From NCBI GenBank assembly GCA_016709155.1, contig JADJEI010000013.1, forward strand, positions 904,093-968,092: a stretch of DNA of 64,000 nucleotides, in the 5' to 3' direction. The position numbers and the translations under genes are program-made. Under the pieces are notes generated by a model. The model did not search any database. It was not told the origin of the DNA and was given only the letters and a program-made list of their open reading frames with translations. This DNA is from Ignavibacteriales bacterium (GTDB lineage: Bacteria > Bacteroidota > Ignavibacteria > Ignavibacteriales > Ignavibacteriaceae). Below, piece by piece: positions 35,778-52,606 of this stretch; positions within the stretch are counted from its first letter, which is position 1; each line of letters starts with the position of its first letter.

Positions 35778-36389
35778 TTACGGTACTGCGATAGTTGCTA
35801 CATCAGATTCTAATCCAACTTCTACATCACCGATAACATAGACGGCTTTATACTCACGCATCTCTGCACCTGCAGCGAGGTTTTCGCGTGTGTCTATGTA
35901 AGGACTTTCGGTGTCAAAAGCTAAAAGTGTCCATTCAGTTTCACCTGCACGGCGGGTGTATATCTTCACTCCATCAGCAATACTTTTTTGAAATGAAATT
36001 CTAACATGCTGATTTGGCATAAGGAACAACTTCAATATTGGTTTCATTGTGTCTTTATCAACAAATGAATCAACACCTTCAATGCCAAGATCCTGACCGA
36101 TTGCTATAGTGTAATTCGGGTTTGCCTTCATCTGCCTTCCTTGAGCTCTGATTAGGTCATTTGCAATTTTTCGTTTTGCTCTTGTATCGGCGTACAGACT
36201 TTCCATATTTGCTTCGGCAGCAACCTGGGTGGAGTATGCAGTGCGGCAGGCACCCACCTTTGTGTTGGCTTCAGTTACCTGAGCCGGTGTGATGGCAAGC
36301 GCAACATTGTGCAGCGGCAGCTTGGTCAAATAATTTTCGTGAAATGTGTCCTGTTCATCAACAGGGCGGGGGATGAAATCCTTTTTCAT
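35778..36389 (-). CDS. hypothetical protein, paralogue of 18227..18859
   Basis: Clean 203-aa ORF, higher G+C than background. Same N-terminal KDFIPR start and C-terminal RRAGE...MREYKAVYVIGDVEVG module. Confidence 0.7.
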   Translation of the reverse strand: MKKDFIPRPVDEQDTFHENYLTKLPLHNVALAITPAQVTEANTKVGACRTAYSTQVAAEANMESLYADTRAKRKIANDLIRAQGRQMKANPNYTIAIGQDLGIEGVDSFVDKDTMKPILKLFLMPNQHVRISFQKSIADGVKIYTRRAGETEWTLLAFDTESPYIDTRENLAAGAEMREYKAVYVIGDVEVGLESDVATIAVP

Positions 36390-36574
36390 AAAAGGTCCTT
36401 TCTGAAAAAATTTTAAATTTGTTATTTATTAAAAGGAACCCTGCTTAATCCACGTTTATTCTCTTTTAAGCTATAAGAGTTCCAACTCAAACACCGGTTT
36501 CGGAATACCCAACTATTGTGCCATATTGATATTTGTTCTTTATTCTAAAAAAATAAAGAAAAGCACTTGGATGT

Positions 36575-36935
36575 GAGTTGCCGACGGTTAAAAATTACAT
36601 GCTGAAGATAAAAATTACCTGCCCAACGGTGGAAAGGTTGGCGCCAACGCTATGACGGGGGGTGGCAACGCGCCCGGGTTTGTAAGCCCCGCTGTACGGT
36701 TGACGGCAACCGTGAGACGGCGCAGACCAACCGTCGCGCAGATGCCTTCCCCGTGTGACGGGTGCCCACCGACAAGACGGCGTTGCAGGCAACCGTGACA
36801 TGGGCGGCTTCCCCCGTGGGACGGTTGGTCCTCACTTTCCGACGGTTATCGCCAACCATCCAAAAGTTAGTGGCAACCGTAGCACGGTTGGTAAAAAGCT
36901 TCGATTTTAGAGTATTTTCAACGGTTATTGGACAT
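36575..36935. repeat. G+C-rich non-coding block packed with ACGGTTG/CAACCGT heptamers and short hairpins
   Basis: Seven exact heptamers (36696, 36707, 36728, 36790, 36821, 36874, 36884) and about as many one-mismatch variants. Palindrome GTTGGCGCCAAC at 36637..36648. ~65% G+C at 36661..36840. Confidence 0.8.
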
Positions 36936-36990
36936 TAATTGTTGCGTGGGTGAAGGGAAATTAGGAAGCATTAAAGAAGTTTAACGTTTC

Positions 36991-37101
36991 GGGGCTTAAA
37001 GAAGTGGCGGGTTAGAAGCACGAACTGTCAACCTACCACAACTGTTTATTAGAAGCACAAATGTTTGATTAACCACTTCACCCGCCATTTCTTTTAAGCC
37101 C
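36991..37101. other. long imperfect hairpin (~20-bp stem, 66-nt loop), possible structured RNA or recombination site
   Basis: GGGGCTTAAAGAAGTGGCGGGT (36991..37012) pairs with CACCCGCCATTTCTTTTAAGCCC (37079..37101), with one bulge and one G-U. Confidence 0.55.
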
Positions 37102-37270
37102 TTGTTATCGGTAGCTCTTCTGTCTGTCCGAAGATGTGTCGTGTCAAGTTTGCACACACTTTGTCCGAAGCGAATTACATTAGAAGCTATGTCCGTCCAA
37201 TTACGCACAGTGCGTTGACAAAATAAATTAAAACATTGAAGAGTGTATTTTTTTTGCGTTGATTTTTTCA

Positions 37271-37828
37271 TCAGTTGTATCTTTTGTTTACTGTTTCCAT
37301 ATAATCTACCACAACTGCATTCATTTTATTTCGATACCACCGAAAAAAGAAATTAGGAACTTTTGCAGCTTCTTGTCGGCTGATATAAATTTCGTCTTGT
37401 ACGTCACGAAGTTCGTCTGTGCCAATATATATTTTATTGAGAATTATTTCGTCCAAATATATTGAGATAGCTTTTCGTCTATCAATTGCAGATGAGTGTC
37501 CACGAATAAGAGTAATAAAGTGAGTGTAAAATGAGAGTATAGAAAAGTAAATTAAAAAAATAGTCATGCCATTTGAGTTGTAAGAAATAAGAAATATCCA
37601 AAGCACGATTGAATAGGAAATAAGAAATCCCGCCAACCATCTACAATAAATAATGCGTAACTCAATATCCCAACTTGTGTTTGAATGTTGCAAAACTGCT
37701 ACGGAAATATTATGAGGAATCGTTGTTGAAATGTTTGGTGAATACCAATCTATAATTTCATTGCCTTTGTATTCAAGAGAAAATTTTGAAACTTCGAATG
37801 GTCTGGCTTCTTTAAGGTTGACTTCCAT
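37271..37828 (-). CDS. 2-TM membrane protein with charged helical C-tail (candidate membrane effector, second half)
   Basis: TM helices LAGFLISYSIVLWIFLISY and MTIFLIYFSILSFYTHFITLI. Overlaps the upstream gene by 17 nt. Confidence 0.6.
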   Translation of the reverse strand: MEVNLKEARPFEVSKFSLEYKGNEIIDWYSPNISTTIPHNISVAVLQHSNTSWDIELRIIYCRWLAGFLISYSIVLWIFLISYNSNGMTIFLIYFSILSFYTHFITLIRGHSSAIDRRKAISIYLDEIILNKIYIGTDELRDVQDEIYISRQEAAKVPNFFFRWYRNKMNAVVVDYMETVNKRYN

Positions 37829-38135
37829 CGTAAATTAAAAGTGCAGTGTCAAACTCTTCCTTAAATATTGCTCCCTTAGAAGTATTTCCTTTGAAAGTAT
37901 CTGCGAATATTTGAACTAAAACAGTAAGCAAAAAAGAACAACCGAATAAAGCAAGTTTTATGCTTTCGTCTTTGATAAGAACATAGGCGATAGGGTAAGC
38001 AAAAGCAAGAAAGATTAAAAAGTAAGTAACTTTTATTTCACCATTCTTTGCTTTTGTATATGCAACTGTTGATGCTTTTAGCAGCTTAATAAATTCAGGT
38101 TCGTTTTGTTTTATCAGAATTTCATTCATTTTCAT
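37812..38135 (-). CDS. 2-TM membrane protein (candidate membrane effector, first half)
   Basis: TM helices VTYFLIFLAFAYPIAYVLI and LALFGCSFLLTVLVQIFA. The start overlaps the upstream ORF end by 14 nt. Confidence 0.6.
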   Translation of the reverse strand: MKMNEILIKQNEPEFIKLLKASTVAYTKAKNGEIKVTYFLIFLAFAYPIAYVLIKDESIKLALFGCSFLLTVLVQIFADTFKGNTSKGAIFKEEFDTALLIYDGSQP

Positions 38136-38738
38136 TGTTGTTTAATTTCCAATCAGGATAAATAGCTTCATTTACTATTTTCTCTGCGATTTCAAAAAGG
38201 TAATCGGGAATAGTGACTGAATTTTCCTTTTTTGTTTTTACAATTTCCTCTGCCGTTTTTTTTGCTAAAGATTTTAATGAGGGATGGCCCAGTGAAATTC
38301 TTATATGGTCGCCTTTGTGTGATTCTCCATACACTTGAAAAATCTTTTGCTCTATTTCGGTTTGCCAATTATTCATTATAGTTTTACAAATTGGCTTGAG
38401 AGTATCGGGATAAGCCTGATAAGCATTCAACAAATTGGTGATAGCCCTTCTTTCAATTGTTCTCCAATTGGCAAAGATGTATTCACTTTTGTCTTCCATA
38501 AATAATTTTGATGAAAAGGAATATCCATCAATCCATAATAGAAATCCCTGTTTAATTTAAGCTTTCTGTTTGACAAAAAATTGTTAATGATATTGCTTAT
38601 AATGATTGTTACAAAATCATGAGTTGTTTCAATAGAAGAATAATATCTTAATGCAGACAAAACCGAGAATAAATATTTTCCTGAATTCCAATCAGGGTCG
38701 CTCAACCTTTTTTGAGCGGCTTTTTTTTTCCGCCTCAT
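38122..38738 (-). CDS. C-terminal continuation of the repeat protein (two overlapping ORF fragments) or a separate 125-aa protein
   Basis: ORF 38427..38738 continues the repeat consensus (AAQKRLSDPDWNS) in another frame after T9 38721..38729. ORF 38122..38499 overlaps it by 73 nt in a third frame. Confidence 0.45.
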
Positions 38739-39773
38739 TTTCTTTTTGATTAAAAGCGGCTACGACAATATCATGTTGAAGCGAAGTGATGTTTTGGTCG
38801 CTCAATATTTTATGAGCGGCTTGTTGTTTTTCCGTCTCATTTCCTTTTTGATTAAAAGCGGCTACGACAATATGATGTATTAGCGAAGTAATGTTTGGGT
38901 CGCTCAATATTTTATGAGCGGCTTGTTGTTTTTCCGTCTCATTTTCTTTTTGATTAAAAGCGGCTACGACAATATCATGTTGAAGCGAAGTGATGTTTGG
39001 GTCGCTCAATATTTTATGAGCGGCTTGTTGTTTTTCCGTCTCATTTTCTTTTTGATTAAAAGCGGCTACGACAATATCATGTTGAAGTGAAGTGATGTTT
39101 GGGTCGCTCAATATTTTTTGAGCGGCTTGTAGTTTTTCCGTCTCATTTCCGTTTTGATTAAAAGCGGCTACGACAATAACAGTTTGAAGCGAAGTGATGT
39201 TTGGGTCGCTCAATATATTTTGAGCGGCTTGTTGTTTTTCCGTCTCATTTCCTTTTTGATTAAAGGCGGCATTTACAATTATCCCATTGATTGAATAGAT
39301 GTTTGGGTCGCTCAATATTTTTTGAGCGGCTTGTAGTTTTTCCGTCTCATTTCCTTGTTGATTAAAAGCGGCATTTACAATTATCCCATTGATTGAATAG
39401 ATGTTTGGGTCGCTCAATATTTTTGAGCAGCTAATTGTTTTTCCGTCTCATTTTCTTTTTGATTAAAAGCGGCTACGACAATATCATGTTGAAGCGAAGT
39501 GATGTTTTGGTCGCTCAATATTTTATGAGCGGCTTGTTGTTTTTCCTCTTTGCCCGCTTTTTTGAAATAGTTTAACCATGCTAAATTGGGATAAACTTTC
39601 TTGTCATAGAGCTTATCTAAATATCCTACTATTTGAACGGGAGTTAAATTGATATCCTCATCAGTTAAATGATTAAGATATGACGGATATAAGTTGCCTT
39701 TTTCAAATAATATATTTATCAACAATAGTTTCTCCTGACCATCAGCAAATATTTGATTCTGGTATTGCATCAT
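38692..39773 (-). CDS. tandem 34-aa repeat (TPR-length) protein; two ORFs joined across T5 39420..39424
   Basis: Repeats of SDPNITSLQHDIVVAAFNQKENETEKQQAAHKIL. ORFs 39414..39773 and 38692..39417 differ by a 1-nt deletion relative to sister units. Confidence 0.7.
38697..39560. repeat. 102-bp tandem repeat array (about 8 full units plus degenerate ends), coding
   Basis: GTCG landmarks at 38797, 38899, 39001, 39103, 39205, 39307 and 39409 (exact 102-bp spacing), then 39510 (101 bp). Confidence 0.9.
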
Positions 39774-39778
39774 AGCAG

Positions 39779-41248
39779 CTAAAAAAATGATGAGAAATTA
39801 TCATAGCTTGGTGCATAGTTGTCAATTACAATATTCAGAAATTGTTTCAATAATAAATCATCATATTTTTTTGTGACAGGGTTATAAAATTCCAGCCATC
39901 CGTCTAAAATCACTCCGGCTAATCCTTCTTCGGCTAATTTATCGTGGTTGAATTGAACAAAATCTATTTGTTGAAGTTTTTTGTTTCTTAATGATGTATT
40001 CCTTCCTTTGTTTATATAACTTTTTACCCGTTCAAGAATAGTTGAGCGAGCATTCCAACTCGTAAAGGCGTTACTTACTTTATCATTTTCATTATAGGTA
40101 TCCGCAATTTTCAGAAATGTATCAAAGTCAATAAATATTTTGTGGTTGGTGTAAATGCAAGCCCAGTTGTGCAATGCTTTTGCCATTCCGGGATATACGG
40201 CATTTATTTTTTTCAAATCACTTTTCACAATGCTTTTAAAAGCCAAGCCGGGTTCAGAGAAATCAATTTCCATAGGGTCAAATTTTTCATTGCTCACTCG
40301 TGCAATTACAAACAACAAGAGGAATAGACTCGTATTATAATACTCCTGCTTCTTTGTAACTTTTTCTTTGGCATCTTTCCATTCTGTGTGAAGCTCCATG
40401 ATTTCAGCAATAATTTTTTCGTTTTCGGTTGATTGGAGATGAAATACATTTAATGGATCAGGTAGGTTATTAATATATTCCTTCCCCGAAGTTTCCCTGT
40501 CACCAATAATAACTCTGATGTTGTTTATGGCTTGTGTTTTAAGTAAAAACTCTTTTGCTTTTTCCTTTAGATTATCTGTAAGACGATACCAGTCTTCAAT
40601 TATTACTAAATAATTTCTAAAACGGTCCTCTTGTATTTGTATCAATCCATTATCCGTAAAGTTTTCAAACCCCCTGTCTTTTACCCAAATAAATTTAAAA
40701 GATTCGTTGCATAGTTCAACTGCCAATCGTCTAAGCAAGGTAGATTTACCACAGCCACCAAAACCATGCACTACTGCTACAACTTTGTATGTTCTTGGTT
40801 TATCAAAGCAACTAGAAGCGATTGTTTTAACTTTTCCGTAATCATTCCTTACCACATCATAATTATTTATTACACCATACCACTGGCAATTTTCGTCCTG
40901 TTTTGCAGTGTAGAAATCAGGTTTTGTAAATTGTTTTCCGTTCTTAATCCTTCTTATGAAAGTGCTGTTAATTACTTCAGCACCTTCTATATGTATGTTT
41001 TCAATTTTGTCTTTGTTGTCTTGCAGGAATTGGAGAAAAAGTTTTGTGCCTTTGATACATTCATCTTTATATAACTTAATAAAAGTGTAATCCCTATCCT
41101 TAAATTCAGCTTTCTCTGCAACATCATCATTCTTCAAATCAAAGTGGTAGATTTTTATGTCATTTCCTTTTAATCCTTTAAAAAACTTGTCGAATACAAT
41201 CTGTTCATTAAATTGAGTGCCGAGAATAATTAGTTTTTTTTGTTTGAA
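39779..41248 (-). CDS. P-loop STAND/NACHT-like NTPase segment
   Basis: Walker A VVHGFGGCGKSTLL and Walker B YLVIIEDW. The frame is open upstream to 41248, beyond the ORF-track TTG at 41137. Confidence 0.75.
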   Translation of the reverse strand, partial: FKQKKLIILGTQFNEQIVFDKFFKGLKGNDIKIYHFDLKNDDVAEKAEFKDRDYTFIKLYKDECIKGTKLFLQFLQDNKDKIENIHIEGAEVINSTFIRRIKNGKQFTKPDFYTAKQDENCQWYGVINNYDVVRNDYGKVKTIASSCFDKPRTYKVVAVVHGFGGCGKSTLLRRLAVELCNESFKFIWVKDRGFENFTDNGLIQIQEDRFRNYLVIIEDWYRLTDNLKEKAKEFLLKTQAINNIRVIIGDRETSGKEYINNLPDPLNVFHLQSTENEKIIAEIMELHTEWKDAKEKVTKKQEYYNTSLFLLLFVIARVSNEKFDPMEIDFSEPGLAFKSIVKSDLKKINAVYPGMAKALHNWACIYTNHKIFIDFDTFLKIADTYNENDKVSNAFTSWNARSTILERVKSYINKGRNTSLRNKKLQQIDFVQFNHDKLAEEGLAGVILDGWLEFYNPVTKKYDDLLLKQFLNIVIDNYAPSYDNFSSFF

Positions 41249-41844
41249 TCAATATCCCCATAAATAACGTTATATAAAGAGTTTTGTTCTGCTCCAAGTT
41301 TAGTATATGAAGCGGAAGTAAAAACAATATTATCCAAGGTAGTTTCTTCATTCATTAATCCGTGAAGGTGAAGAATACAATTATCATTACTATCCATTGT
41401 ATACGCCGGATAATTAAAAACCGGATACTTTTTCCCTTTATGTTTTGATTGAATTGTAGTTAAAACATTATCAAAATTAAAAGTGAAAATTGAATACCAG
41501 TTCGGCAGAAAAACCGAATCAAACAACTCGAAGTTAAATGCCGTTTCATCCACTAAAAATAAATTTCTTAGCTCATTAAGCAAATTAGGATTATTAGCAA
41601 TTTTGTTTTCCCATACCGATGCAGCAGCTTTATATTCTGTAACTGATTTTGTAAATTTTTCATTTGTAAATTTTATGAATTGTTCAGCCGTTGGAATTGT
41701 ACTAAATTCTTTGTTTTTATTCTTGACTCCAAAACTGAAACCAGCACCGAGAACCAAACAAAAATGCCCTTCTCTTAAGTCATCAAAAAAAGAATTGTCC
41801 GGCTTGAAATCGGCAATCAAAACAATATGGTTATCTTTGCTCAT
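41230..41844 (-). CDS. SIR2-like (SIR2_2-type) domain segment
   Basis: FCLVLGAGFS glycine-rich start, ILHLHG catalytic-His context, IVFTSASY. The expected LIILGTQF strand follows in the next frame after the T8 run 41234..41241. Confidence 0.7.
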   Translation of the reverse strand: MSKDNHIVLIADFKPDNSFFDDLREGHFCLVLGAGFSFGVKNKNKEFSTIPTAEQFIKFTNEKFTKSVTEYKAAASVWENKIANNPNLLNELRNLFLVDETAFNFELFDSVFLPNWYSIFTFNFDNVLTTIQSKHKGKKYPVFNYPAYTMDSNDNCILHLHGLMNEETTLDNIVFTSASYTKLGAEQNSLYNVIYGDIDSNKKN

Positions 41845-42187
41845 ATGTGAAAAACAAAAAAATGTGCTGGGGCAAAAATTAAAAAAACTTCATTGCGGCT
41901 GTGCGATAAAGTTATCATTCCATTTGGTTTCGTATTGAAAAATGTTCGTTTCATATCATTCAGTTTTAAGTTTCACAGTCGCCAATAGGGTTGCACATAA
42001 CTTGTTTATACCAGCCATAAAGTTGCACATATACAATGGCATTGCCATTAGCTTTGCGTTATAAACGGCTGTTATTATTTCTGGTACAAACATAAAAAAT
42101 AATATTATAATTCATCAAATGGTGATTTCATTTTCCGCAAACTTTCATCTCACTCATCACTTCTCTTGTCTACTCTTTGTGGAGCGA

Positions 42188-42949
42188 TTATTTTTTCCTG
42201 ATGTAGATGATTTTAATATTCTTTTTACCTGTGTCACGCTCATCAATTTCAAATCTGTTCAGGCTTTTAATTAAGGGCAGCATTTTGGGGAAGCCGTAAT
42301 TTCTGGGGTCAAAGTCGGGTTTCTTTTTCAGCATCAGGTTCCCTAATTCGCCTAAAAAAGTCCAGCCATTTTCGTCGGCAAGGTCAGTTATGCTGTCGGT
42401 TAATAGATTGATTAAATCAGAGTCAACTTTGCTCAAAGGATTATTGTCAGGTGGTGCTGCATCCTTTGATATTTTTTTATGCCTGTCTGCCGGCTGTCTT
42501 GTTGTTTTTGTTTTTAAAATTTCGAGGTAGATGAATTTATCGCAGGCGGTTATAAAAGGATTTAAGGTTTTCTTTTCTCCAATTCCAATTACTTTCATAC
42601 CTGCTTCTCTAAGTCTTGTGGCAAGTCTTGTAAAATCGCTGTCGCTTGAAACAATACAAAAGCCACCCACCTTACCGGTGTATAAAATATCCATCGCATC
42701 AATTATAAGTGCGCTGTCACTTGCGTTTTTTCCTATCGAGTAGCTGTACTGCTGTATTGGAGTAATGGCATTTTCTAAAAGCACGTGTTTCCAGCCGGAA
42801 ACGGATTGCTTTGTCCAATCAGCATAAATTCTTTTAAAGGTAGGTGTACCATACTTTGCAATTTCCTCAAACATTTCTTTCACGTTTGCGTAAGGCACAT
42901 TGTCGGCATCAATTAATACTGCTAATTTCAGGTCATTTTGGGTTTCCAT
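42188..42949 (-). CDS. NYN (PIN-like) nuclease domain protein with C-terminal LOTUS/OST-HTH-like module
   Basis: LAVLIDADNV...IYADW...GKNASDSALIIDAMD...FCIVSSDSDFTRLATRLRE.G NYN signature. C-terminal GWTFLGELGNLMLKKKPDFDPRNYGF. Confidence 0.8.
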   Translation of the reverse strand: METQNDLKLAVLIDADNVPYANVKEMFEEIAKYGTPTFKRIYADWTKQSVSGWKHVLLENAITPIQQYSYSIGKNASDSALIIDAMDILYTGKVGGFCIVSSDSDFTRLATRLREAGMKVIGIGEKKTLNPFITACDKFIYLEILKTKTTRQPADRHKKISKDAAPPDNNPLSKVDSDLINLLTDSITDLADENGWTFLGELGNLMLKKKPDFDPRNYGFPKMLPLIKSLNRFEIDERDTGKKNIKIIYIRKK

Positions 42950-49621: not shown

Positions 49622-50374
49622 ATGAATGAGCCAAATAAAATTTCTGTAATTATCATTACAAAAAATGAAAATCAAAATATTACCGATTGCCTTAATTCTG
49701 TAAAATGGGCTGATGAAATCATCATCATTGATGCAGAAAGTTCGGACGATACAATAGAACTTGCAAAAAAATTTACTGATAAAGTTTTCATCAAAAAGTG
49801 GAATGGATATTCGGATCAGAAAATGTATGCGCTTTCATTAGCAAAGAATGAATGGGTTTTAAGTCTCGATGCCGATGAAAGAATTACTGATGAATTAAAA
49901 AATGAAATTATTTTTTCTGATCTTTCCATTGCTGACGGATATAAAATTTCGAGAGCTAATTATTTTTTAGGCAGACTTATTCGAGGCTGCGGCTGGAGTC
50001 ACGATTATCAGTTAAGGTTATTTAGAAAATCAAAAACAAAAGTGACTGAAAGAATGGTACACGAAGGTTTTATCGTTGACGGGAAAATTTCTGAACTGAA
50101 ATCTTCGATGCTTCATTATTCATATCGAAATTTTCATGATGCTGTGAATAAAATTAATAAGTACTCTACTCTTGAAGCACAAGAAAAATATCAGCGCAAA
50201 AAAGTAAATGGTTTTACAATCCTGCTAAATCCTTTTATCGCATTCGTACAGTTTTTTATTTTCAGAAAAGGATTTATTGATGGTACATATGGATTGCTCG
50301 TTTCCATTATGCATGCAATGACCAAGATGATGATGTACATGAAAATGTGGGAACTGCAGAAGAAACAAAAATGA
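49622..50374 (+). CDS. glycosyltransferase family 2
   Basis: ISVIIITKNE...IIIIDAESSDDT...LSLDADE (DxD) motifs. Confidence 0.85.
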   Translation: MNEPNKISVIIITKNENQNITDCLNSVKWADEIIIIDAESSDDTIELAKKFTDKVFIKKWNGYSDQKMYALSLAKNEWVLSLDADERITDELKNEIIFSDLSIADGYKISRANYFLGRLIRGCGWSHDYQLRLFRKSKTKVTERMVHEGFIVDGKISELKSSMLHYSYRNFHDAVNKINKYSTLEAQEKYQRKKVNGFTILLNPFIAFVQFFIFRKGFIDGTYGLLVSIMHAMTKMMMYMKMWELQKKQK

Positions 50375-51487
50375 GTATGAACGTTGTCATAACTAACGAC
50401 GCTGTCAATATTGCCGGTGGTGAAAACTATGCGCTTTATCTTGCCGAAGGATTAAGAGAACGAAATCACAAGGTCATTATAGCACCGTTAAAAAATTCTG
50501 CATTAGCCGACGAAGCACGTGAGCGTAAATTTTTAGTTTATGAAATTCCATATGGACTTAAGGGCAGGGAATTCAATGCAGTAAAAGTTTTATACAATTT
50601 TCTTCGAAAAGAAAAAATTGACATAGTCCATTCTAATTCAAATTTGGATAGAACTATCGCAGCCTTCGCTGGAAAATTTATTGGAGCTAAAAATTTTACT
50701 ACCGTTCATTCTTGCTTATCTATTAGCCGAAATGTAACTCATCGCTTTAGAAATAAATTCTTGATTGATCGCTTCACTCCGGTTGGATTTTCTACGAAAG
50801 ATATTTTGATAAACATGGATTTAATCCCTGAAGAAAAAATATCTGTGGTGCATATTGGCTTACCACCGGCTCAATTTGTTTATTCGAGTGAAGGCAGAAG
50901 AAAAATTCGAAATGAATTTTCGATTAAAGATGAAGAAATACTTATAGGAACGGTTTCCCGGTTAGTTGAATTTAAAGGACATTCTAATTTAATAAACGCT
51001 TTTAAGGATGCTTCTTTAAAAAATCAAAAGCTAAAATTGCTGATTGTTGGATCAGGTGAACTTGAGGCGGAATTAAAAACAAACCGCAAATTTTCAGTTG
51101 GAGGACAAAATCATTTTTACCGGGAATAGAAAAGATATTTCCGATATACTTTCTGCAATAGATATCTTTGCACAAACTTCAATTGATAATGGAGGGGAGA
51201 CATTTCCTGTGTCAATTCTCGAAGCTATTTCAGTCGGGCTTCCGATTATTGCAAGTAATGTCGGTGATATTAAATATCTCGTTCGAAATGAAAATGGAAT
51301 TTTGCTTCAGCCGGGAAATGTTTTGCAGATATCGGACTCAATCTTAAAACTTTCTTCTAATCAAAGCTTGATCGAAAAATATAAATCAGCTTCGAGAAAA
51401 TTGTTTGAAAATGAATATACTGTCGGGCGAATGGTAAATAAAATTGAATCACTTTATTTAGAAGAACTAAAAAAAGATGTCCATTAA
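50371..51487 (+). CDS. glycosyltransferase family 4, interrupted at A5 51075..51079
   Basis: ATG 50371 overlaps the GT2 stop. Removing one A joins ...GSGELEAELK to QTANFQLEDKIIFTGNRKDIS...ETFPVSILEAISVGLPIIAS. Confidence 0.75.
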
Positions 51488-52606
51488 AATATTGATCGCA
51501 CCCGATTCGTTTAAGGAATGTATTGACTCAATTTCGCTGGCAGCGCTTATTGAAGATGAATTTAAAAAGTTTAATAACTATGAACTGAAATCAAAACCAA
51601 TTTCTGACGGCGGAGATGGATTTCTGAATGTTTGTAAAAATTACTTTCAACTTGAAGAAGTTAAATATTCAGTCTCAACAGCTTATAATGAAGACATAAT
51701 GATTTGCCAAATTGGATATGATAAGATTAGAAGAAATATTTTTATAGAATCGGCTGATGTACTCGGACTAAAAAAATTCCTGCCGACAAGAGAAAACCTT
51801 TAAAGCTTAACTCAAAAGGATTAGGAGAGCTTCTTTTACAAATTAAATCAGATGTAGAAAAAGAAAAACTAAATTGTGACTCAATTTATCTTGGTATTGG
51901 CGGCACCGGCACAGTTGATTTCGGACTTGGTATGTGTTCAAAACTCGGGTTACAAATATCTGATTTTTATAAAAAAGAAATGGATGTACTCCCTGAAAAT
52001 TATTTCCGCATGGGTGAAATTTATCCGCCGAACAAGACTTTGCCATTTAATATTATTTGTGTTGTTGACGTTCAGAATCAATTGATAGGACAGGATGGGG
52101 CAGTGATAAAATTTGCCTCACAGAAAGGCGCATCACCGTCAGATATTAAATTGTTAGAACTTGGGTTTAGTAAAATTCTAAACATCCTTCAAACGAAAAA
52201 CTTGATAGGGAATGAAAAATCTTTTTCCGGGGCAGGTGGAGGAATTGCTGCGGCACTTCAAATATTTTATAATGCGAAAATTATACAAGCCAAAGATTTT
52301 ATTCTTAATTTGCTCGATGTGAAGATGGAGATTGATCATTCGGAAATTATAATTACCGGTGAAGGCAAGTTCGATTCACAAAGTTTACTCGGCAAAGGTG
52401 CATACTCAATTGCAGAATATGCCTTACAAAAAAATAAAAAGGTTTTTTTTGTCTGTGGTAAATCTGAAATGAAAGCCGGCAATTTTGATAATGACAATTT
52501 CTCTATTATAGAGTTGAGCAATTTTATGAGTTCAGAAAACGAATCAATTCAAAATATAAATCGGGGTATTTCTTTAGCATGTGAGCTAATCCGGTCTAAA
52601 CTTTGA
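51477..52606 (+). CDS. glycerate kinase, interrupted at A7 51770..51776
   Basis: KILIAPDSFKE...SDGGDGF N-terminus. One extra A joins ...DVLGLKK to IPADKRKPLKLNSKGLGELL...GIGGTGTVDFG and the 51932..52606 ORF. Confidence 0.75.

Follow-up and report, generated by a model that had tools for sequence, protein, structure and literature searches.

The closest described systems to the one analysed here are the Avs5 proteins, in which a single polypeptide combines a SIR2 domain at its N-terminus, a STAND NTPase in the centre and an alpha-helical repeat sensor at its C-terminus (EfAvs5, 9jap; PaAvs5, 9nc9). Binding of the trigger leads to oligomerisation or filament formation and to NAD+ depletion (PMC11897194; bioRxiv 2025.07.08.663546). 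A second point of comparison comes from fungi, where NLR proteins such as HET-E, HET-D, NWD and others carry WD40, ANK or TPR repeats of high internal conservation (HIC) (Paoletti 2007; Dyrka 2014, PMC4986451). According to the same authors, WD and TPR repeats of the HIC kind also occur in some bacterial NLRs. We analysed a 64-kb stretch of DNA from an Ignavibacteriales bacterium (the window), in which a SIR2-STAND gene contains an array of near-identical repeats. This array is a bacterial counterpart of the fungal HIC repeats. Both consist of near-identical units in a STAND/NLR sensor, C-terminal to the STAND NTPase, with few hypervariable positions on a predicted binding surface; the window array may also share with the fungal ones a polymorphism of repeat number between alleles and the pattern of concerted evolution combined with diversifying selection. 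They differ in that the window family is made of bacterial SIR2-nSTAND5 proteins whose repeat has no WD, ANK or TPR Pfam profile, and in the presumed target, which is phage here and allorecognition in fungi.

The array lies in the C-terminal part of a gene of 1242 codons located on the minus strand (38122..41844), which we reconstructed by following the reading frame through several frameshifts. All the junctions of the reconstructed gene were confirmed by an intact, 99.8% identical allele (L039), and in homologues SIR2, nSTAND5 and repeats form a single ORF of 1000-1440 aa. The SIR2-like (SIR2_2) effector domain is N-terminal (41140..41844, minus strand) and contains a GAGFS motif together with N123 (in FNFD) and H161 (in HLHG), two residues that are nearly invariant in the family alignment and present in the window protein. 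The corresponding profile, PF13289, matches 23 of 27 family members, the only PDB sequences matched by the family profile are SIR2 NADases, and the ORF bearing this domain is named 'SIR2 family protein' by NCBI. The STAND P-loop NTPase core (40475..40888, minus strand) is an nSTAND5 module (PF25199, E=3.5e-10, residues 320-457) with the Walker A sequence GFGGCGKST and the Walker B sequence LVIIEDW; throughout the family, G361-T369, D418 and G448-D449-R450 do not vary. Two features expected of an Avs5 protein, namely a SIR2 domain with catalytic Asn and His and a P-loop NTPase with invariant GxGGxGKST and hhhhED motifs, are thus present. By analogy, window-type proteins likely share with Avs5 the path from trigger to oligomer or filament and to NAD+ depletion. 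There are also differences. The window NTPase belongs to Pfam nSTAND5, whereas nSTAND3 was reported for PaAvs5; PADLOC assigned to the window STAND protein only mad8 (E=1e-3) and no Avs model; and the family profile found no match in the 9jap and 9nc9 sequences at E<=0.01, the resemblance to Avs5 being one of fold only. Moreover, characterised Avs5 sensors are poorly conserved TPR, Sel1 or PPR-like helices, divergent and hard to read, whereas this small clade combines a uniform scaffold with a short variable patch.

TRF detected a single array at 38695-39546 (period 102, 8.4 copies, 89% matches, score 1280). With the phase set from the AGC of 'SDPN' and counted from high to low coordinates, it resolves into eight near-identical 34-aa (102-bp) helix-turn-helix units on the minus strand (38703..39515). 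Six units are exactly 102 bp long (39414-39313, 39312-39211, 39210-39109, 39108-39007, 39006-38905 and 38904-38803), while the first (39515-39415) and the last (38802-38703) measure 101 and 100 bp as a result of 1- and 2-nt deletions that are absent in the near-identical allele. The array is preceded by a degenerate N-terminal capping unit (39516..39617, minus strand), in which the match to the unit is limited to the last 12 or so codons (EEKQQAAHKIL), and followed by a degenerate C-terminal unit (SDPDWNSGKYLF..., 38601..38702, minus strand). The latter opens a conserved C-terminal cap domain that extends to 38122 and whose motifs W..W, PFH, NW..E, GDHI..LGHP and P.W are kept throughout the family. 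The sequence SDPNITSLQHDIVVAAFNQKENETEKQQAAHKIL is present in two units that are one synonymous nucleotide apart, ..SLIHHIVV.. and ..SLQTVIVV.. occur once each, and ..YSINGIIVN.. twice; recent duplicates are thus evident in the window array, as two identical units and two YSING units. Pairwise DNA identity between units averages 86% (92% without the two YSING units). At the protein level the mean is 80% over 272 aa, slightly below the 85% (across 100 aa or more) that defines fungal HIC repeats, and 87% outside six patch positions. A preliminary description of this DNA, made from the letters and their ORFs, had placed 102-bp tandem units in a STAND C-terminal sensor. The units we find are the same, with a phase offset of 6 nt and the 101-bp step included, every peptide that it quoted is found in the array, and the sensor placement agrees with the Pfam nSTAND_NTPase5 match and with homologues that are single SIR2+nSTAND5+repeat proteins. 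The scaffold, described there as almost invariant, is not entirely so, since about seven of its sites (residues 3, 20, 21, 27, 28, 31 and 32) exist in two or three states. That description overlooked the minus-strand orientation of the gene, its apparent frameshifts in this assembly and its SIR2 effector domain.

We then considered where the units differ. Per-column variability and position in the family define a hypervariable patch in codons 6-14 of each unit (39474-39500, 39373-39399, 39271-39297, 39169-39195, 39067-39093, 38965-38991, 38863-38889 and 38761-38787, minus strand; overall span 38761..39500). Its core is formed by residues 9-11 and 14 of the unit, residues 6 and 8 being variable too. 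These codons, which represent 27 of the 102 nucleotide columns, contain 18 of the 33 variable ones (hypergeometric P=2e-5), a clustering at about residues 6-14 that had been noticed beforehand and is upheld. When the patch was instead defined from homologues, independently of the window, 12 of its 15 columns were variable in the window units (P=6e-5). In this family-defined patch, pN was 0.425 and pS 0.224 (pN/pS 1.9), against 0.073 and 0.156 in the rest of the unit; in eight relatives the patch pN/pS ranged from 0.49 to 1.86, compared with 0.29-0.44 elsewhere in the unit. The picture of cassette-like units bearing a variable patch is thus borne out by a patch position common to the family and a raised pN/pS. 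In the window array and in those of P0015, P0036 and P0014, three of the eight relatives, the patch exceeded the scaffold in synonymous divergence too, which fits, for these arrays, a homogenised scaffold and a patch that escapes homogenisation. Furthermore, the patch, which flanks a conserved "IV", was the most variable site in all the relatives that we compared, whose units measure 30-42 aa. As this is true of lineages with 30-, 34-, 35-, 36- and 42-aa units that are only 25-50% identical, the pattern is old and maintained.

Could such a patch simply be an unconstrained exposed turn of an ordinary structural helical repeat, the near-identity of the units resulting from recent amplification without any role in specificity? 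Such an explanation would account for the obvious duplicates of the window array and for patch pN/pS values close to 1 among the relatives (0.5-1.2 in P0014, P0009, P0029, P0040 and P0001). Moreover, pN/pS values of about 1-2, when computed from only eight units that are short and not independent, are expected under positive selection and under relaxed constraint of an exposed loop alike. We nevertheless regard it as unlikely. The same positions are the most variable across lineages whose units differ in length, and in the most uniform arrays, whose scaffold does not differ even at synonymous sites, 3-5 residue types persist in the patch. Moreover, variable residues and conserved hydrophobic ones segregate to opposite faces of the helix, the former at i, i+1, i+4 and i+5, and in characterised STAND sensors it is the C-terminal repeats that bind the trigger.

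The position of the patch in the fold was deduced from a homologue that is 44% identical (P0004); the single-sequence AlphaFold prediction of the 241-aa repeat ORF of the window (pLDDT 51, implausible strands) was discarded. In the high-confidence AlphaFold model of P0004 (pLDDT 90.8), each unit comprises a helix A of 10 aa, a turn, a helix B of 12 aa and a 9-aa linker with a 3-10 turn. Aligning the units on this model shows that variation affects mostly helix A, at its N-cap, in its first turn and at positions i+4/i+5; we infer from helical periodicity that the patch corresponds to the N-cap and exposed face of this helix. The best Foldseek matches of the model, queried as a whole, were EfAvs5 (9jap, E=9e-15), SAMD9, the AVAST5 filament 9nc9 and DSR2. 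Like the window protein, DSR2 and SAMD9/9L associate SIR2-like and/or STAND modules with helical sensors binding viral proteins, and their Foldseek matches are significant; unlike it, DSR2 is devoid of a STAND NTPase, and the repeats of both are divergent and not cassette-like.

Two kinships had been suggested on the basis of the 34-aa period, and neither was retained. This is indeed the TPR period, but no TPR, HEAT, ANK or Sel1 Pfam profile matched the window protein or the 27 family members (for TPR, Sel1 and HEAT, at E<=1 and E<=0.01, respectively), and the unit predicted in the homologue, whose helices have 10 and 12 residues and are followed by a 9-aa linker, would depart from the two helices of about 14 aa of a TPR. 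The resemblance to TALE and BAT repeats lies in the period (33-35 aa), in the near-identical two-helix units and in the tiny hypervariable specificity site of TALEs. However, we found no sequence match to solved structures in the PDB, and the patch is located elsewhere in the unit: it consists of 4-6 residues at the junction between linker and helix A, whereas the TALE RVD is a di-residue in the inter-helix loop. The context is also different, the window protein being a SIR2-STAND immune NTPase and TALEs being secreted DNA-binding effectors. A further comparison is with other bacterial repeats. The 42PR repeats, reportedly described by Marold and colleagues in Structure in 2015, are said to be TPR-like repeats of high internal identity in bacterial NTPase proteins. 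They would share with the present ones their nature of natural bacterial helical-hairpin repeats, very high internal identity and occurrence in NTPase-type proteins, and some relatives of the window protein have 42-aa units. In these relatives (P0001, P0002 and P0005), however, the 42-aa unit corresponds to the 34-aa one lengthened by 8 aa that separate the two helices.

According to these results, we propose that the array is probably the ligand-sensing arm of a putative Avs5-like antiphage protein composed of a SIR2 effector, a STAND NTPase and a repeat sensor. In the scenario that we favour, unequal crossing-over and gene conversion between units would keep the scaffold uniform while changing unit number and order, and diversifying selection would keep the exposed patches different. 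Once stacked, the patches could form a continuous surface to which a phage protein binds and which can be re-tuned rapidly. The bound ligand might then free the NTPase module for oligomerisation or filamentation, and the oligomer or filament would activate the SIR2 NADase and abort infection, as EfAvs5 and PaAvs5 do. Patches differ from unit to unit, from relative to relative and apparently from strain to strain. If the patch is indeed the recognition surface, a handful of residues in each unit could suffice to read or to engineer specificity, as with DARPins or TALEs, and the fungal NLR strategy, which combines concerted evolution and diversifying selection, would extend to antiphage proteins of non-filamentous bacteria. 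It would also follow that short-read metagenomes systematically misassemble such genes.

A second protein may take part in this response. The STAND stop codon is overlapped by a downstream gene for an S_4TM protein, a membrane effector with four transmembrane segments (37271..38135, minus strand), in which PF18159 is split over two ORFs and which is recognised by the 4TM effector models of PADLOC. This translationally coupled protein is a possible second, membrane-targeting effector. The coupling to an S_4TM gene, found in some members of the window family, sets them apart from Avs5, and its recurrence hints at a two-effector design. Comparison with related contigs shows that the STAND and S_4TM cassette occupies a strain-variable slot (36360..42104): homology to these contigs stops at 42105 and restarts at 35887 or 36359, and the same slot contains there a Peptidase_S41 gene or a methyltransferase pair. 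It is flanked by an NYN/OST-HTH gene (42188-42949) and by a multihaem cytochrome region. The 64-kb window contains no tRNA and no Rfam family, and thus offers no clue as to an integration site.

In the window assembly, the STAND gene is broken into six ORF pieces by five frameshifts, located at 41242, 39788, ~39422, 38726 and 38491, and the S_4TM gene carries two more, which alignment to intact homologues identifies as 1-nt deletions at 37841 and 37797. One could imagine that the two genes are a decaying pseudogene pair and the array a functionless relic in this strain. Seven frameshifting deletions within 4.6 kb, against two in the other 59 kb or so (binomial P=3e-7), would be in keeping with decay, and the pieces are annotated by NCBI as separate proteins. 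General homopolymer under-calling was itself first doubted, since many A7-A9/G8 runs elsewhere in the window stay in frame inside intact ORFs; the shifts are nonetheless absent from the four short-read assemblies of the locus (L039-L042), where every length difference is a deletion in the window and where the S_4TM gene is intact (288 aa). The intact allele of L039 is only 11 substitutions away in 5.2 kb, and the three other samples agree with it; the allele is carried by samples ERZ27258567, SRR31893911, SRR30113342 and SRR30113344. The ratio of indels to substitutions (about 8:11), with all indels being window deletions, is what one typically obtains from errors in a long-read consensus, as opposed to natural decay. 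Furthermore, the reconstructed STAND gene contains no in-frame stop codon and retains 99 of 102 family-conserved residues, and two ordinary metabolic genes, for a group-1 glycosyltransferase and a glycerate kinase, are frameshifted too, at short runs. Decay of the pair therefore seems improbable. Given a 99.8% identical allele that is intact in independent short-read assemblies, the frameshifts are most probably not biological: they would be consensus errors, made where the long-read assembly of a metagenome crosses an island of low coverage that varies between strains. Strain variability would entail low coverage and poor polishing, and we infer that the local clustering of frameshifts stems from it. 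The MAG series to which the window belongs (MBK69..., here proteins MBK6915413-20; locus tags IPH11_) is presumably that of a Nanopore-based activated-sludge study.

A more daring reading of the array is that the stacked patches form a code with one element per unit, in the manner of TALE, PUF or PPR proteins, so that unit order would spell out the specificity for a linear ligand. This ligand might be an extended phage peptide or a nucleic acid, and recombination between units might re-program the phage that is sensed. Several features would suit such a code: scaffolds that are near-identical, 4-6 adjacent positions occupied by 3-5 residue types, 1-17 units per protein, and unit gain or loss and patch swap between otherwise identical alleles. 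A conventional composite surface for protein binding would explain the same observations just as well, and we give the code itself little credence.

Comparison with L039 revealed an allele with seven units instead of the eight of the window; the seven are found in the same order in both, and six are base-for-base identical. Of the six substitutions that separate the two STAND genes, five are located in the last unit, and its patch contains two of these five (QHD against QPE, at 38774/38770). The comparison of alleles advocated in the preliminary description thus yields a difference of one whole unit and of the last-unit patch, and its warning about unit number was justified by the 7-unit allele and by three other short-read contigs that break at the array edge. 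Errors made during assembly or polishing, on either side of the comparison, could account for these differences within the array. It is nonetheless very improbable that the near-identity or the unit number as such results from the collapse or expansion of a more divergent array. It is true that short-read contigs from three samples stop exactly at the array, that 8 units are counted in the window versus 7 in L039, and that the locus of another family member has 1, 2 or 4 internal units in k141 assemblies. However, two independent assemblies obtained with different technologies agree on the unit sequences and on their order, bar one unit. In addition, at the junction that joins the first unit to the third in L039, the variants specific to each are about 67 nt apart; both fit within one 141-mer, and the junction should therefore have required real read support. 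The extra unit of the window (the second) differs from the third at 4 nt and is thus not a trivial duplicate. Among the relatives, P0019, P0021 and P0023 differ solely in unit number, a comparison in which artefacts are possible since all assemblies apart from the window are short-read ones. Finally, diversification of the patch by a diversity-generating retroelement, which is known for putative STAND-linked sensors of some multicellular bacteria (PMC10907252), was rejected as extremely unlikely, since the 64-kb window holds no second unit copy that could be a template repeat, the patch differences involve all four bases and not adenines only, and the variation extends over eight tandem units instead of one variable repeat.

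The family to which the protein belongs is small. We found 83 SIR2_2+nSTAND5 homologues. Members of the family come from the Ignavibacteriota, Bacteroidota, Cloacimonadota and others; the repeat matches 48 clusters only among 1.84 billion representative proteins, and no metagenome contig matched the unit scaffold when scanned for as an exact pattern. Uniform arrays exist elsewhere in the family, the units of P0015 and P0036 being 90-92% identical at the DNA level. Like Avs5, the family occurs in a defence-island context: P0001 adjoins MmeI RM and AbiTii genes, and P0015 adjoins CHAT and toxin-antitoxin genes.

Tandem Repeats Finder gave one tandem array, at 38695-39546 (period 102, 8.4 copies, 89% matches, score 1280), which is coded on the minus strand. 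Phased on the 'SDPN' turn, the array consists of eight units (U1 to U8) between 39515 and 38703 (-), six of them 102 bp long, the first 101 bp and the last 100 bp, with half-degenerate cap units on either side (39617-39516 and 38702-38601, both -). Every unit peptide quoted in the preliminary description was found in it. Pairwise identity between units averages 86% at the DNA level (92% without the two YSINGIIVN units) and 80% at the amino-acid level (87% outside the six patch positions). The clustering of variation that had been described was borne out, as 18 of the 33 variable nucleotide columns fall within codons 6-14 (P=2e-5); when the patch was set independently from the homologues, 12 of its 15 columns were variable among the window units (P=6e-5). 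The scaffold had been called almost invariant; about seven scaffold positions are in fact two- or three-state.

The array belongs to a minus-strand frame that runs across six overlapping ORF pieces from 41844 to 38122. Joined, these encode a 1242-aa protein with an nSTAND_NTPase5 domain (Pfam) at residues 320-457. A search of 5.8 billion proteins returned 83 relatives, the best 52-56% identical, each a single polypeptide of 1000-1440 aa in which SIR2_2 and nSTAND5 domains are combined with a repeat array and, at the C-terminus, a conserved cap. The SIR2 residues Asn and His and both Walker motifs (A and B) are intact in the window protein, as are 99 of 102 family positions with conservation of 90% or more; domain order and conserved catalytic residues are thereby established. 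When 1.84 billion representative proteins were searched in full with HMMER, the repeat itself turned up in only 48 clusters, and their lengths and positions nearly all fit the same SIR2-STAND architecture. We modelled homologue P0004, which is 44% identical to the window protein and likewise has 34-aa units, with AlphaFold from a 56-sequence alignment (mean pLDDT 90.8). The best PDB matches of this model in Foldseek were EfAvs5 (SIR2-STAND, E=9e-15), SAMD9, the AVAST5 filament and DSR2. No Avs model was matched in a PADLOC search of the window, and the family profile run against PDB sequences did not reach the Avs5 sequences. The window protein is therefore Avs5-like in architecture, yet belongs to a separate clade. 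Avs5 proteins are its closest functional relatives, although the characterised PaAvs5 proteins carry an nSTAND3 NTPase instead of nSTAND5.

In the P0004 model each unit comprises a helix A of 10 residues, a turn of 3, a helix B of 12 and a linker of 9 with a short 3-10 turn. Mapped to the window numbering (S1 D2 P3 N4 ... L34), helix A has Q9 as its N-cap and H10 and D11 in its first turn; I12, V13, A16 and F17 form its conserved hydrophobic face, and V14 and A15 are again on the exposed face. The model thus shows the units as helix-turn-helix and places the patch within them. By helical periodicity, such a placement would make residues 9, 10, 11 and 14, together with linker residues 6 and 8, one contiguous exposed ridge per unit. 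The period had suggested a TPR, an identity that the profile searches do not support: TPR, HEAT, ANK, Sel1 and ARM profiles match neither the window protein nor any of 27 family members. The array had no match among solved structures searched by sequence, and the repeat type is an unclassified alpha-hairpin solenoid.

Among the relatives, units are 30, 31, 33, 34, 35, 36 or 42 residues long and number from 1 to about 17. In each of the 20 arrays examined, entropy is highest in the 2-3 residues that precede a conserved IV/II pair and in the 1-2 that follow it. The arrays of P0015, P0020, P0036, P0030, P0028, P0073, P0040 and P0084 are more uniform than that of the window. Comparison of P0001, P0002 and P0005 with P0004, P0014, P0015 and the window protein indicates that the lengths of 30-42 residues arise by indels in the linker and in the stretch separating helices A and B; despite these changes, the IV anchor and its flanking variable patch keep register across the family. 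A rival explanation of the patch, which we consider improbable, is neutral variation of an exposed turn. Codon-level counts (Nei-Gojobori) gave pN 0.425 and pS 0.224 in the patch of the window array and pN 0.073 and pS 0.156 in the rest of the unit, with pN/pS of 0.49-1.86 in the patch and 0.29-0.44 elsewhere in eight relatives with DNA; drawn from few, non-independent units, such counts are alone no proof of positive selection. The patch exceeds the scaffold in synonymous divergence in the window array and in those of P0015, P0036 and P0014, three of the eight relatives, so that in these arrays the scaffold appears to have been homogenised while older patches persisted.

That the near-identity or the unit number is an assembly artefact seems very improbable, although the unit number had been suspected of mis-assembly. 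Contig L039, which carries a 99.8% identical allele, reads U1, U3-U7 and a variant U8 with patch QPE; U2 is absent, whereas the window has U1-U8 with U2 present and a U8 patch of QHD. U2 is a YSINGIIVN unit, 4 nt from U3. Five of the six substitutions between the two alleles in the 3.7-kb STAND gene lie inside U8, and two of these five make the patch difference. Patch variability is seen between these two alleles as well as within arrays and across the family. At the U1-to-U3 junction of L039, unit-specific variants about 67 nt apart lie inside one 141-mer, so that a graph artefact seems unlikely there. In another family member (L032-L038; P0019, P0021 and P0023), one locus seen in more than ten short-read metagenome assemblies encodes proteins that differ solely in having 4, 2 or 1 internal 30-aa units; the copy number may be truly polymorphic, or near-identical 90-bp units may have been collapsed by k-mer assembly. 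The three independent short-read Logan contigs L040-L042 all break off, at their position 1, inside the last repeat unit, exactly where the window-type array has its edge; short-read metagenomes therefore systematically lose or truncate such arrays. The large protein search likewise did not return the intact 99% identical protein.

The window copy (proteins MBK6915413-20, from a MAG of Ignavibacteriales bacterium) contains five frameshifts in the STAND gene and two in the adjoining downstream S_4TM gene, as if the strain truly carried dead copies, a reading that we consider improbable. A cluster look-up found an intact S_4TM of 288 aa, at least 90% identical. In L039, among the contigs with an intact S_4TM, the STAND gene stays open without interruption for 1204 codons or more and bears out every junction of the joined window frame. 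When L039 was aligned globally against 36500-41832 of the window, the two differed by only 11 substitutions, a 101-bp segment unique to the window and seven deletion events on the window side (41242, 39788, 38726 [2 nt], 38491, 37841, 37797 and 36753); three more short-read contigs from other samples are the same as L039 wherever they overlap. Since the indel to substitution ratio is near 1, all indels are window deletions, and there is neither a nonsense codon nor loss of a conserved residue, the sequence comparison points to long-read consensus error as the probable cause, rather than decay or biology. The 1-nt deletion at 36753 is non-coding, downstream of a 91-aa ORF (36996-37271), and fits error-type indels extending beyond coding sequence. 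Seven of the nine shifts found are concentrated in a region making up 7% of the window's length (P=3e-7), plausibly because low depth and ambiguous polishing are to be expected for a cassette in a strain-variable slot. The other two lie outside the slot, in a polysaccharide-synthesis region, where a group-1 glycosyltransferase is split at about 51100 (50347-51129 and 51077-51484) and a glycerate kinase at about 51780 (51471-51800 and 51758-52603); Pfam profile coverage carries on from piece to piece in both, and these splits are probably assembly indel errors. Finally, diversification of the patch by a DGR fails because the unit is without any other copy in the window and all four bases are substituted.

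We favour a recombining array under selection, in which unequal crossing-over and gene conversion would keep the units similar and alter how many there are and how they are ordered, while selection would maintain the patch differences. The stacked patches may bind a phage protein, and binding could in turn drive NTPase-dependent oligomerisation and license SIR2 NADase activity; oligomerisation and NADase activation have been shown in EfAvs5 and PaAvs5, whereas in the window protein we infer them by analogy. The closest evolutionary analogy to the array is found in fungal NLRs, whose WD/ANK/TPR repeats of high internal conservation are polymorphic in number, evolve in concert and have surface sites under positive selection (PMC4986451). 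According to the same group, some NLRs of filamentous bacteria carry such WD/TPR repeats (bioRxiv 2020.01.06.895854). In our literature search, neither such behaviour in Avs-type antiphage proteins nor this repeat type was described, and a 2026 survey of prokaryotic STANDs likewise gave no match to these terms.

S_4TM (SMODS-associated 4TM effector, PF18159) is a recognised family of CBASS-type membrane effectors. Its gene lies at 37271-38135 (-) in the window, at 10172-11032 in contig L028 and at 3603-4469 in L039, and is also found in L014, L015, L019 and L022. In three places (the window, the near-identical allele and P0036, a distant relative) the gene starts before the STAND gene has ended, with an overlap of 11-20 nt across the stop codon; it recurs behind a 31% identical nSTAND5 relative. 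In four other genomes, S_4TM homologues with 50-78% identity stand behind SIR2-bearing genes whose match to the query covers the SIR2 part only; in a protein search, relatives that match the SIR2 part alone carry a NACHT domain. The nSTAND5 relatives are mostly without an S_4TM gene. STAND and S_4TM look like a conserved two-gene module, and because S_4TM is repeatedly found in translational coupling with SIR2-STAND genes, it may act as a second effector or relay a signal. The cassette occupies a slot (about 35888/36360-42104) flanked by an NYN/OST-HTH gene on one side and a gene for a multihaem cytochrome on the other. In related contigs the flanks of this slot are 85-88% identical to the window; the slot contains a Peptidase_S41 gene in 21 of the 24 contigs read, and an N6/N4 methyltransferase pair instead in GCA_044227405.1. 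A GC-rich imperfect inverted repeat at 36693-36862, with neither an Rfam nor a tRNA match, has 43-nt arms that are 72% complementary and 84 nt apart; its site, 36.4-37.0 kb, is ORF-poor, with a GC content of about 0.40-0.42 versus about 0.34 around it.
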